Assembly: GCA_028286505.1 (NCBI GenBank)
Contig: JAQBRK010000024.1
Span: forward strand, 1-33,975
Direction: 5' to 3'
From: Parcubacteria group bacterium
GTDB lineage: Bacteria; Patescibacteriota; Minisyncoccia; Phycocordibacterales; Phycocordibacteraceae
Length of the DNA: 33,975 nt
A model generated the notes under the pieces. The model made no database searches, was not told where the DNA came from, and saw only the letters and a program-made list of their open reading frames with translations. The translations under genes were made by a program, and so were the position numbers. Below are positions 26,822 through 33,613 of this stretch, in pieces; position 1 is the stretch's first letter; each line of letters opens with the position of its first letter.

Positions 26822-28105
26822 TTAGTTACAGTAGGTGCGGCCGTTCGAGGTGTAGGTACCGAAGCTGCAGTAGTTACCGTTGCTGTCATAACGGCTCGTG
26901 TTGCTTGAGCTCGAATTACAGTAGTAGCGACCGTTCTGGTAGTACGTTCCGTAGGAACAGTAGTTACCGCTCGTGTCGTAAGAAGAAGAGTTGGAATTAT
27001 TGTTCGAGGTACTTGTCTCGCAGTACTTACGATTATTGCTGGTGTACGTTCCGTAGGAACAGTAGTTACCGTTGCTGTCGTATGACGAGGAGTTCGAGTT
27101 GCCATTGCTGCTCGAGCTCGTTTCGCAGTAGGTGCGGTTGCCCGAGGTGTACGTTCCGTAGCTGCAGTAGTTACCATTGCTGTCGTAGGAGCCGTTTCCG
27201 TTAGTGCTCGAAGAGCTGGAATTACAGTAGTAGCGGCTGTTCAGATAGTACGTTCCGTAGGAACAGTAGTTGCCGTTCGAATCGTACGAACCGTTCGAAG
27301 ACGAATTGTTCGACGAATTGCTGCCGTTCAAGTAGATCGAAGCGGTAGCCGTATTGTTGCTTTCGTTCGATTCGTTTACGTTCTGGCGTGAATCCGCAGT
27401 GATGCGAATAGTATCCGAACCACGATTCGAAGAGTCGAAACCGAGGGTGAAGACGATGCTGTCTCCCGGATTAAGGGCACGCTGCGTGTCGGAACGATAG
27501 TCGGCAGAACTGCCGGTCGTCGGAAGCCATGCTTCGAAGTTCCATTGGCCGCTTACGTTGGTGCCACGGTTAGCGATAACGAAACGAACTGCTCCTTGGT
27601 AGCCGCTTGGTACGGTCTGTGCAGCGACGAAGGAATTAGTGTCACCGTTGTTGCGGAGGTAGCCGACCGAAGAGATGGTAGTAACGAGGTCAGAAAGTCC
27701 GGTGTAGTTCTGCGAAGCGGGTACTGCAACTACGTGGTACGTAGGAGTAGGAGACGTGTATACGGGAGCTGGAGCTACCGGTGCAGGTGTTGGAGCCGGC
27801 TGGGTGTACGTAATGACCGGAGTGGTCGTCGCAGCAGGGGAGAGCTGGATGGTGGTCGGTGCGGGTGTGGAGGTTACCGGTACCGTCGGGTTTACGGCCT
27901 CAAGCGTGTTGTCAGTCGAGTCCGACTGCGTCAGCGAAGAGAGGTAGACGTTAGCAGTGGAAAGGTGCGAGAAGGCCTTAGGAATAAAGGTTGCCGCGTA
28001 GATAGCGGTTGCGATTCCGATAAGAATAAGTGCTACAAAGCCCACGACGGCGAGGCCGCCAACGGCTGCCTTTCGGGTCTGGGACTGATTCTGGTTCGTT
28101 TCCAT
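26822..28105 (-). CDS. signal-anchored surface protein: T/P-rich linker, one CARDB-like domain, five C-terminal Cys-containing tandem repeats
   Basis: The TM segment is GGLAVVGFVALILIGIATAIYAATFI. The CARDB-like module ends NVNESNESNN. The C-terminus is 5x YD(S/T)(N/S)GNYCS(Y/F)GTY….R.YC. ATG 28105 (METNQ…) is preferred over GTG 28123 because a TTGACA-N17-TAATAC promoter ends 8 nt upstream of it. Confidence 0.7.
   Translation of the reverse strand: METNQNQSQTRKAAVGGLAVVGFVALILIGIATAIYAATFIPKAFSHLSTANVYLSSLTQSDSTDNTLEAVNPTVPVTSTPAPTTIQLSPAATTTPVITYTQPAPTPAPVAPAPVYTSPTPTYHVVAVPASQNYTGLSDLVTTISSVGYLRNNGDTNSFVAAQTVPSGYQGAVRFVIANRGTNVSGQWNFEAWLPTTGSSADYRSDTQRALNPGDSIVFTLGFDSSNRGSDTIRITADSRQNVNESNESNNTATASIYLNGSNSSNNSSSNGSYDSNGNYCSYGTYYLNSRYYCNSSSSSTNGNGSYDSNGNYCSYGTYTSGNRTYCETSSSSNGNSNSSSYDSNGNYCSYGTYTSNNRKYCETSTSNNNSNSSSYDTSGNYCSYGTYYQNGRYYCNSSSSNTSRYDSNGNYCSFGTYTSNGRTYCN
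26825..27286 (-). repeat. five in-frame tandem repeats (22-35 aa, ~90-105 nt) each with two Cys
   Basis: The nucleotide core acgttccgtaggaacagtagttaccg recurs at intervals of about 100 nt (near 26948, 27047, 27150, 27250, and a diverged copy near 26858). The peptide unit is YDSNGNYCSYGTY(T/Y)…R.YC followed by an S/N-rich linker. Confidence 0.85.
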
Positions 28106-28113
28106 ATGCTGAT

Positions 28114-33500: not shown

Positions 33501-33613
33501 TCCTCGAGCGCCTCGTGTCCTCGCTTTCCACTGCCGTCGATTCCAGCTACTCGGCAGGAGTGACGGGCGTGAAGCTTGCGGTTACGCGCGCGCTTCAGGT
33601 CGTAGAAGGGTAA
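30542..33613 (+). CDS. giant surface protein: N-terminal anchor/signal, 19-Pro + (AP)5 spacer, 8 Ig-like repeats, MPYTG + TM + RR segment, ~220 aa C-terminal domain
   Basis: 1023 aa. The hydrophobic N-terminus is AVAIGVFSVLAVLATGFGIGLATGV. Repeats of 79-83 aa each begin with a Cys (Cys codons at 30806, 31046, 31295, 31541, 31781, 32018, 32264, 32510). MPYTG lies at 32816-32830, followed by LDLGPVGTALYWLGLILWSLAVAYLVLWGAVPFALRRFG. An Ala-rich stretch and a helical domain follow. Confidence 0.8.
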   Translation: METKILSLPNKKAVAIGVFSVLAVLATGFGIGLATGVVNVPTAFACCVTPPPPPPPPPPPPPPPPPPPAPAPAPAPAPVTVTPPPPPTCDFDASPSSVQQGGSSTLSWSTNNADSVSIDAFGAVNTSGSTGVTPSVTTTYTLTATNSIATVRCNTTVTVTVPLPPAPVCTLSANPTNIQQGGASTLNWTTNNATSVSIDNGIGGVATSGGRTVTPLQTTTYTLTATGNGGTVNCNATITVTPPVVQPPAPVCTLSANPTNIQQGGSSNLSWSTNNATSFTINQGIGQVTPVSGGSRTISPSVTTTYTGTATGPGGTVNCNATVTVTVVPPAPVCTLSASPTSILAGGTSTLFWTTSNASSVTITNVGSVTPVSSGSRSVSPTQTTTYTLTATGNGGTVNCNVTITIVTPQAPVCTLSAVPTSITQGSAATLTWTTSNASNVFITNVGGVEKGGSVTVAPSVTTTYTLTAYGSNGQPVSCSATITVVTPNSPVCTLTASPTNIQQGGSSTLTWTTNNATSVSIDNGIGGVATSGSRNVAPSSSTTYTLTASGPGGTVYCSAPITVTYIQIPPAPTCTLSANPSTLRSGDVTTLSWTTTNANSFSIDQGVGFVNPVSNGSLGVNPGGSRTYTGTATGPGGTVTCATSVSTSYSRPGPACTLNVSPSTINNGDEATLTWDGTNVNQVRINQGIGSVNDGGSRTVSPRGAGTYTYEGTFYGDNGNVITCSATLRVREPQQHLVLDSLPVVGPQPLSYVYLADMPYTGLDLGPVGTALYWLGLILWSLAVAYLVLWGAVPFALRRFGLAAPEFAHATNHAYPHDAPAPLLAAASAAAAHVAKPAMHSAVAAAPARTYSSYSGFKAVAENGALTIDDIVKGLSRETEVQTYVPAATIAAAAPVAHAYVAPAAAPAAVSAPVHQDIPAFLTALINGEKETVFGIIRGITKAGGDSQEFLTHVVFALDDAYRAKMDGTAVHPEVARVCVDCAPNFLERLVSSLSTAVDSSYSAGVTGVKLAVTRALQVVEG
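30689..30745 (+). repeat. run of 19 consecutive proline codons, followed by (Ala-Pro)5
   Basis: Counted codon by codon in the frame of 30542: CCT CCG CCT CCG … CCC (mixed Pro codons), then GCA CCG GCG CCA GCT CCT GCA CCG GCT CCT to 30775. Confidence 0.9.
30806..32746 (+). repeat. eight tandem Ig-like coding repeats (79-83 aa)
   Basis: The consensus is C(T/D)LSA.P..I..GG.STL.W.T.NA.S..I..G.G.V…GS..V.P…TTYTLTA.G.GG.V.C.A.ITV. Segments 31034-31087 and 31283-31336 are 52/54 nt identical. Confidence 0.85.

Follow-up and report, generated by a model that had tools for sequence, protein, structure and literature searches.

The window analysed here, a 33,975-bp stretch from a Parcubacteria group bacterium (contig JAQBRK010000024.1; G+C 0.556), encodes a sortase (28237-28899, + strand, 220 aa) and, downstream on the same strand, a 1023-aa open reading frame (ORF) of immunoglobulin (Ig)-like repeats, here called Ig1023 (30542-33613, +). 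Ig1023 is the obvious candidate for a substrate of the neighbouring sortase, and probably a dedicated one. Both genes belong to what gene order identifies as a conserved four-gene unit, whose other members encode a divergently transcribed CARDB membrane protein (CARDB433) and a Cys-rich protein in the slot between sortase and substrate (h483). The account that we favour, with fair but not high confidence, is a dedicated sortase-substrate pair in which an adhesin of disulfide-stapled Ig beads would be anchored at the surface and a functional cytoplasmic remnant left in the membrane. The evidence obtained concerns the genes present, the conservation of motifs, domains and gene order, the catalytic residues, which are intact, and the folds as predicted; every step proposed below is inferred from the signal motif and its spacing, from an enzyme with an intact active site and from a linkage of the two genes that persists across loci.

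The pairing is supported by the architecture of the C-terminal part of Ig1023, in which a hydrophobic helix and basic residues follow an xPxTG pentapeptide with canonical spacing. The sorting-signal core, PLSYVYLAD-MPYTG-LDLGPVGT, spans aa 750-771 (32789-32854, +), with MPYTG itself at aa 759-763 (32816-32830, +). It is followed by a membrane helix at aa 772-798 and by Arg-Arg at aa 799-800 (together 32855-32941, +); the helix was found by hydropathy and also in an AlphaFold2 (AF2) model, at residues 25-61 of the conserved C-terminal module described below. An earlier sequence-only reading of this DNA had described the internal MPYTG as the only sorting-signal-like element and had found no canonical C-terminal LPXTG motif with transmembrane helix and basic tail on the locus proteins. 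Both statements hold throughout the 34-kb window, where MPYTG with its helix and Arg-Arg is the sole such element and no protein carries a C-terminal LPXTG signal. Another 223 residues follow the Arg-Arg pair of Ig1023, and across family members 223-425 residues separate the motif from the C-terminus. No anchor domain of Pfam or NCBIfam matched Ig1023.

The last 284 residues of Ig1023 form a highly conserved module. It begins with PL(S/A)(F/Y)VYLS(Q/E), then (I/L/V/M/T)PYTG, then LDLGP.GT. Its middle part consists of the membrane helix (..YW..LI.WS.A.AYL), R/K, a disordered Ala/Pro/His-rich linker and a helical motif, GF(R/K)SFA....LTIDDIVKGLSR; a second linker leads to a helical domain of ~105 aa that closes with ...SSYS.G.TG.KLALTRAL.VV.G. 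An exhaustive profile search of 1.84 billion representatives returned 1128 clusters (50% identity) at E <= 1e-3, and 147 at E <= 1e-30. Wherever the match extended over the whole module length, the module ended the protein. The proteins are roughly 450-1378 aa long with variable ectodomains, some of which carry SpaA-type prealbumin domains, other Ig-like adhesin domains or CPNxxGxQ repeats. For Ig1023 and the module, Pfam, NCBIfam and PDB sequence searches gave nothing above threshold, and literature searches that combined sortase with Parcubacteria, Patescibacteria or candidate phyla radiation (CPR), or that used the pentapeptides, found no description of the system.

Within the family, the P, Y, T and G of the pentapeptide are near-invariant, and the residue ahead of them varies: in a first sample of 55 it was I in 26, L in 9, V in 8, M in 7 and T in 3, and in a second sample 49/58 read IPYTG. 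The two closest orthologues read LPYTG. Since position 1 varies in this way, the Met of the window is ordinary, and by this alignment MPYTG is one of the usual forms of a (I/L/V/M)PYTG-LDLGP motif shared by the whole family. Compared in these terms, the predicted signal of Ig1023 is non-canonical solely by its conserved cytoplasmic extension of ~220 aa. Of the interpretation in the sequence-only reading, which is partly supported overall, the idea of a sortase-centred locus with a non-canonical substrate holds. Two observations on the family complete this part. Six distant profile hits with a match over the helical domain only (P0315, P0322, P0325, P0326, P0329 and P0335) were suspected to be DnaX, an idea that was rejected; they are remote family members with IPYTG and a membrane helix, and with different ectodomain repeats. 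Also, on some short contigs, the cytoplasmic part has homologues that are called as proteins of their own (180-230 aa, among P0188-P0207) and begin just ahead of the GF(K/R)xFA...LTIDDIVKGLSR motif; these may be genes that were split, frameshifted within the low-complexity linker or called too short.

The enzyme itself was examined with profile models and by comparison with its homologues, of which more than 1000 were retrieved. The Pfam Sortase model (PF04203) matched at 75.0 bits against a cut-off of 26.6 and was covered over positions 1-125 of 125. A single membrane helix lies at aa 19-37 and is joined by an unconserved linker to the catalytic domain at aa 78-213, in which His129 (LFGHSS; 28621-28623, +), Cys196 in TLVTC (28822-28824, +) and Arg205 (28849-28851, +) align to the triad residues of class C sortases with solved structures. 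The three residues were 100% conserved among 120 homologues. By sequence it is thus a genuine sortase with an intact active site, and transpeptidase activity is predicted. This agrees with the sequence-only reading, which had recognised His, TL.TC and Arg motifs in this ORF, and a degenerate active site, the objection which that reading had foreseen, was not found.

The class of the sortase was less clear-cut. Scored against the NCBIfam sortase models and their curated cut-offs, it reached 42.7/160 for class C, 40.3/160 for class E, 32.9/140 for SrtD, 29.9/165 for class D, 23.3/158 for class GN (TIGR03784) and 22.6/166 for class F; class A and class B models were not matched at E <= 0.1. None of the class cut-offs (A-F, GN) was therefore reached, and the generic sortase model TIGR01076 came slightly under its threshold (37.1 vs 39.35). 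The closest solved structures by sequence were class C pilus sortases (24rr, E 4.9e-8, and 6bwe), with weak E-values, followed by other sortase structures at still weaker ones. Profile classification, one of the comparisons suggested by the sequence-only reading, thus places the protein in the sortase family but in no established class, and it is best described, from these scores, as belonging to a CPR-specific clade outside classes A-F.

We next consider gene order. Looked up from both sides, through sortase homologues and through module-protein homologues, each relative showed the same arrangement: GyrB, the CARDB gene (-), the sortase (+), a protein of ~340-480 aa (+) and the Ig/module protein (+), followed by ProRS and DnaE on the opposite strand. 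A synteny scan with one genome per GTDB species found a module relative in 174 species-level genomes, and the best 80 loci were analysed. In 56/56 loci with at least ~4.3 kb of upstream flank, all from related Parcubacteria/Kaiserbacteria genomes, the sortase lay on the same strand 2.2-5.8 kb upstream of the module, and in 55 of those 56 the CARDB gene was divergent to it; in the other 24 the upstream flank was cut off by a contig end within 2.6 kb. All sortase homologues on long contigs that could be matched sit in such a locus, and only one protein per cassette bears the sorting motif. Close relatives share the whole neighbourhood, and for this reason distant loci are more informative. Two of these (L087 and L088) keep the core of CARDB(-), sortase and module protein, with sortases 43-46% identical and module profile E-values of ~1e-33 to 1e-35, while holding two or three different small secreted proteins or lipoproteins between sortase and module gene and another tRNA synthetase downstream. 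Taken together, these comparisons indicate that the cassette is a conserved four-gene unit of CARDB membrane protein, sortase, slot protein and Ig-repeat protein. The sequence-only reading had proposed a sortase-centred locus; this is borne out, with all ORF boundaries unchanged, and the synteny of sortase and Ig-repeat genes is retained in the 56 loci and in the two distant ones.

The gene junctions of the cassette could also be checked against independent data. Near-complete window DNA is present in one soil metagenome run, and a single independent unitig of 4.7 kb from that run covers 26800-31058 without a difference. As this interval lies in one unitig, the gene junctions are real and not chimeric.

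These features suggest a pathway in which Ig1023 would be exported via Sec by its N-terminal signal, which is probably cut at AFA|CC. The ectodomain, consisting of a Cys-Cys/polyproline segment and eight disulfide-stapled Ig beads, would be held at the membrane by the C-terminal module. The sortase, anchored by its N-terminus, would attack the Thr-Gly bond of (I/L/V/M)PYT|G with Cys196 and transfer the ectodomain onto an acceptor that offers an amino group, most likely a precursor of peptidoglycan, giving a wall-anchored adhesin. Genes for the handling of peptidoglycan are present in the lineage: the window encodes an SLT_2 protein, and a relative (L004) encodes VanY. The leaving group would be a membrane-tethered fragment of ~260 residues with a cytoplasmic polypeptide of ~220 residues, including a domain that resembles domain III of clamp loaders. 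Conservation of this tail implies a function before or after cleavage, and the remnant would presumably work either before it, in clustering or targeting of the precursor, or after it, by reporting deployment to the cytoplasm. The CARDB protein and the Cys-rich slot protein would be conserved accessory surface components.

Several points weigh against this pathway. Cleavage, the acceptor and the function of the cytoplasmic domain are all inferred. The Tyr in position X never varies, nor does the LDLGP.GT that follows the motif; both traits are atypical of sortase signals, and PYTG-LDLGP could instead have a structural role next to the membrane. The polyproline spacer is found near the N-terminus and not beside the motif, which the wall-spanning regions of LPXTG proteins normally adjoin. 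We know of no described precedent for a large cytoplasmic domain after a sorting signal. The search for other substrates covers the window and 1.19 Mb of flanks from the same neighbourhood. Furthermore, that whole neighbourhood, with GyrB upstream and ProRS and DnaE downstream, is syntenic in the lineage, so part of the adjacency may be due to gene order being conserved in general and not to a functional coupling.

One alternative is an Ig1023 that the sortase never cleaves: a transmembrane adhesin or receptor, single-pass once its signal has been removed, whose ectodomain would bind a partner and whose clamp-loader-like domain would act inside the cell, with the sortase serving proteins encoded elsewhere. 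The unusual conservation on both sides of the pentapeptide, including the Tyr, and the large conserved cytoplasmic domain suit an intact transmembrane protein, and synteny with housekeeping genes makes adjacency alone a weak argument. However, P, T and G are near-invariant and stand at the canonical distance from the helix and basic residues, and the linkage to the sortase survives local rearrangement in the distant loci. Neither the window nor the 1.19 Mb of related flanks showed a further candidate substrate; in the flanks, which sample one and the same neighbourhood throughout, all 68 matches to xPYTG plus helix bear tails of 200-350 aa, and a strict canonical xPxTG signal at the C-terminus was not encountered. 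We therefore regard an uncleaved receptor as unlikely, though deserving of consideration.

The dedicated pair that we favour can be compared with housekeeping LPXTG sorting by class A/E sortases. Both have a membrane-anchored Cys transpeptidase with a His/Cys/Arg triad, and in both the substrate has an N-terminal signal, Ig-like adhesin repeats and xPxTG followed by a hydrophobic helix and basic residues. The cassette differs in that its sortase falls under the cut-offs of all class A-F models, in that its motif is (I/L/V/M)PYTG with invariant Tyr followed by invariant LDLGP.GT, in that the signal is not C-terminal but precedes a conserved cytoplasmic polypeptide of ~220 aa, and in that there is apparently one substrate per sortase, encoded alongside. 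In this last respect it is closer to the class GN 'marine' sortase (TIGR03784), which is paired with an adjacent single target protein: in both cases a single conserved target lies beside the sortase, with a lineage-specific variant of the motif, and the two are kept as a cassette. Unlike the GN pairs, the cassette comes from a CPR lineage, its sortase is only weakly homologous to TIGR03784 (23.3 vs 158), its target has a cytoplasmic extension, and two extra genes, for the CARDB and the Cys-rich protein, are conserved.

In Ig1023, residues 1-45 (30542-30676, +) form a signal peptide or anchor with a membrane helix by hydropathy, and probably end at a putative signal-peptidase site, AFA|CCVTPPPP in the window sequence; A-x-A followed by Q/CC is a recurrent pattern among family members. 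A Cys-Cys and polyproline/Ala-Pro linker follows at aa 46-88 (30677-30805, +), encoded by an imperfect CCN repeat. In 38 of all 59 family representatives longer than 450 aa that start with Met and an N-terminal helix, a CC dipeptide, mostly PPCC, stands directly after an A-x-A|Q-type site. The dipeptide was also seen to adjoin a polyproline or Gly-rich linker in family members P0208-P0335. By analogy, the Cys-Cys element resembles the CPPC of antibody hinges and may form interchain disulfides.

Eight tandem Ig-like domains of ~80 aa occupy aa 89-735 (30806-32746, +), each with a conserved Cys pair. The AF2 model of the repeat is an Ig-like beta-sandwich with a predicted local distance difference test (pLDDT) score of 91, and its structural matches are Ig-like, PKD and S-layer Ig domains; the description of a 1023-aa Ig-repeat protein in the sequence-only reading is thereby confirmed. 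The repeat is also homologous to repeats within two CARDB proteins of 838 and 863 aa encoded at 2386-11020 (E 7e-12). In the soil run, the repeat array (31029-32406) is broken into short unitigs. A low-depth joint from 31492 to 31772 (depth 3.3 vs ~22) represents a minor variant that is one Ig repeat shorter, and a second allele runs across 32281-32406 (depth 8 vs 18). With the array built from short unitigs and a variant lacking one repeat, the number of repeats is somewhat uncertain, both in the assembly and in the population.

The composition of the ectodomain is extreme, with 31% Ser+Thr and a single, unconserved Lys in 713 residues; the median Lys content of the Ig1023 family is 0.9%. Glycosylation or protease avoidance could explain this. 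No pilin motif was found in the ectodomain (no YPKN-type motif and no match to [WY]xK[NDSTH]). These properties bear on the suggestion of the sequence-only reading that the locus proteins are assembled by the sortase into a surface fibre, i.e. a covalently polymerised fibre or pilus. The bead-like Ig-repeat substrate would suit such a fibre, as would the closest solved structures and the top NCBIfam score, both class C. The catalytic motifs align with those of class C pilus sortases such as Enterococcus faecalis Ebp SrtC (24rr) and the 'fimbrial associated sortase-like protein' (6bwe, 5k9a). However, the class C score of 42.7 bits is far under its cut-off of 160, and two class C hallmarks are missing: in 120 homologues the stretch from the membrane helix to residue 75 is unconserved and, at sequence level, contains no DP(F/W/Y) lid motif, and the sortase lacks a C-terminal membrane helix (its sole helix is at aa 19-37, its C-terminus ...HLVESYPSAS). 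Where pilus systems have several LPXTG pilins and a substrate with a pilin motif, the sorting motif here is on a single protein of the cassette with one Lys in its ectodomain. On this evidence the fibre does not stand, and we consider polymerisation very improbable.

The region after the membrane helix of Ig1023 consists of low-complexity linkers around the short helical motif GFK..A....LTIDDIVKGLSR (aa 801-917; 32942-33292, +), with F119, D132, V134 and G136 invariant in module numbering, and of a conserved, cytoplasmic six-helix domain in the AF2 model (aa 918-1023; 33293-33610, +). Built from a 56-sequence alignment, the model of the module has a long membrane helix, low-confidence linkers and the six-helix C-terminal domain at pLDDT ~95. 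When this domain was compared with the PDB by Foldseek, the top 41 matches were all gamma, delta or delta' chains of clamp loaders (E from 4.9e-3, probability 0.94-1.00), and the gamma chains superposed with a root-mean-square deviation of 2-3 A over ~112 columns. By position, the match was assigned to domain III (collar). In contrast to the fold match, sequence comparison gave little: PF12169 (DnaX domain III) was the only Pfam family matched by more than one member (2/21, best E 0.14), and a PDB profile search with the module found no clamp loader. We therefore claim a resemblance in fold, and not homology, between the predicted last ~105 residues and clamp-loader domain III. Compared with domain III of clamp-loader gamma/tau, delta and delta', the predicted six-helix fold superposes, but AAA+ domains I and II are missing, the cassette domain is attached to a membrane helix and there is no significant sequence similarity. 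In clamp loaders, domain III serves as the oligomerisation collar; by analogy, it is a reasonable guess that the six-helix domain may oligomerise as well.

A membrane remnant with a function of its own has its nearest precedent in streptococci. As described in one account, which cites work on S. gordonii (PMC11502775), the LPXTG C-peptide that remains after sortase A cleavage is functional in signalling; in streptococci it consists of a helix of ~30 residues with a short tail that contacts a histidine kinase. The likeness to the membrane-embedded remnant proposed here is an analogy only; the cassette remnant would be ~260 residues long with a folded domain, and the cassette contains no kinase. 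If the remnant is functional, C-peptide signalling would be extended to a new architecture. We also entertain, as an improbable extension, that the PYTG module is a new kind of sorting signal whose cleavage gives a wall-bound ectodomain and a membrane-tethered, collar-like domain that stays behind or is released in the cytoplasm, where it oligomerises or binds replication or cell-cycle proteins. If true, such two-product cleavage would couple adhesin deployment or host-cell attachment to intracellular physiology in episymbiont-like CPR bacteria.

The divergent gene of the cassette encodes CARDB433 (26822-28123, - strand, 433 aa). It has a membrane helix at aa 19-37, a Thr/Pro-rich linker, a CARDB domain (PF07705; aa 170-260, 30.4 bits vs a cut-off of 22.7) and five C-terminal Cys-pair repeats of the form 'YDSNGNYCSYGTY..R.YC', in line with the divergent CARDB protein with Cys repeats of the sequence-only reading. 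From helix position and gene order, it is a predicted type II membrane protein and the conserved divergent partner of the sortase. The membrane helix and juxtamembrane segment are kept across cassettes; the Cys-repeat tail is specific to the lineage. An 'LPTTG' at aa 199-203 was considered as a second sorting signal and rejected: it lies within the CARDB domain with no membrane helix after it, and it is unconserved, orthologues reading LPSAS and LPSNT.

The divergent intergenic region measures 113 bp (28124-28236). Three sigma-70-like hexamer pairs were found in 26500-33975, all inside or overlapping this region: TTGACA-18-AATTAT with a TG (28195-28224, +) and two on the - strand (28189-28162 and 28243-28214), each a consensus match only. 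Back-to-back promoters had been proposed here. Matches on both strands do fall in or overlap the intergenic region, but their number in 26500-33975 was not above shuffled expectation. No RNA element of the locus matched Rfam.

The gene between sortase and substrate encodes h483 (29000-30451, +, 483 aa). In this protein, which has 10 Cys, an Ala/Pro-rich linker connects a signal peptide to a C-terminal domain rich in Cys. The sequence-only reading had called it a G+C-rich secreted Cys-rich protein. Secretion and Cys content were as described, but its G+C is raised only modestly (0.61 vs 0.556 for the window), with a G+C at third codon positions (GC3) of 0.74 against 0.59-0.68 for its neighbours. 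Chimeric assembly as the source of the raised G+C is ruled out by the unitig across 26800-31058. An antisense ORF of 477 aa (29024-30457, -) overlaps h483 fully and was treated as most likely a shadow of the high-GC3 h483 frame, not as a gene.

A word-indexed search with h483 returned only h483, and pairwise BLASTP among five syntenic slot genes was mostly insignificant. However, tblastn detected h483 homologues in the same slot of four distant loci (L084, L059, L056 and L041; E 1e-21 to 4e-10), and single-linkage clustering united 50/64 slot ORFs into one family, which overturned the idea of h483 as an orphan in a slot filled by unrelated genes. The family sits between sortase and substrate in 50 of the 62 loci that have both genes. 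C269, N271, C288, C345 and C421 (h483 numbering) are invariant, and Pfam and PDB sequence searches gave no match above threshold. h483 is therefore a divergent member of a conserved, fast-evolving family of secreted Cys-rich proteins. Thus, of the three atypical secreted proteins seen by the sequence-only reading, the atypical signal stood, whereas CARDB433 is anchored in the membrane by its N-terminus and h483 belongs to a conserved family.

The slot family also evolves far faster than the flanking genes. Between the window and L003 the sortase is ~70% identical while the slot proteins cannot be aligned by BLASTP; the same applies to slot proteins of other relatives that are close by their flanks, and some distant genomes hold detectable homologues. 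Fast evolution of this sort is common in proteins under diversifying pressure, and a fast-evolving partner gene is a typical trait of host-interaction loci.

The constancy of the CARDB protein, with its conserved membrane helix, and of the slot protein in the cassette raises the question of whether the acceptor might be a protein. Cleavage at PYT|G would then join Ig1023 to the CARDB protein, to h483 or to the N-terminus of another Ig1023, giving a defined hetero- or homo-conjugate on the surface, and the Cys-Cys conserved close to the N-terminus of the mature protein hints at defined chemistry between molecules there. However, Ig1023 showed neither a conserved Lys nor anything like a pilin motif, CARDB433 contains just 3 Lys, no specific acceptor site stands out, and wall anchoring is the default chemistry of non-class-C sortases. 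Transfer to a protein is for these reasons doubtful, and anchoring to peptidoglycan remains the favoured outcome of the sortase-substrate pair.

CPR/Patescibacteria are thought to live attached to other cells. To our knowledge, almost nothing of their attachment machinery is known beyond type IV pili; we know of no described family of CPR sortase substrates, nor of any described sortase substrate with a cytoplasmic tail of ~220 residues. The cassette offers a concrete, syntenic four-gene surface system in Kaiserbacteria-like Paceibacteria, built around a family that has no Pfam or NCBIfam model, and its folded, conserved cytoplasmic domain after a predicted sorting signal would be new to sortase biology. 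It also supplies a specific motif for enzyme assays, (I/L/V/M)PYTG-LDLGP (peptide form YVYLADMPYTGLDLGP), and the sortase may serve as a ligase with a distinct recognition sequence. Sortases are known to be enriched in CPR (PMC6744442), and the literature searches yielded nothing beyond general statements of this enrichment.

The nearest relatives of the proteins of the window are from metagenome-assembled genomes labelled Parcubacteria, Paceibacterota or Kaiserbacteria. Compactly arranged housekeeping genes (L25, release factor, EF-Ts, PheS/T, adenylate kinase and GyrB) and several surface proteins with CARDB/PKD domains are encoded. Between Ig1023 and the window end lies a hairpin with a perfect 19-bp stem (33754-33795), likely a bidirectional terminator that ends a sortase-h483-Ig1023 transcription unit. 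In relatives, tiny membrane-peptide ORFs (36-70 aa) occur at this position; no convincing one was seen there in the window.

Upstream of the cassette, GyrB (24388-26532), when read from its first ATG, opens with ~35 additional residues, rich in Lys and Ala, ahead of the point where the ATPase domain usually begins; the real start may be the internal Met15. Further upstream, two paralogous gene pairs at 2386-11020 lie on either side of a membrane protein (5919-7454) whose N-terminal domain is of the apolipoprotein N-acyltransferase type. Each pair encodes a membrane-anchored protein (320/323 aa, 49% identical) and one of the 838/863-aa CARDB/PKD surface proteins mentioned above, which are ~40% identical to each other.

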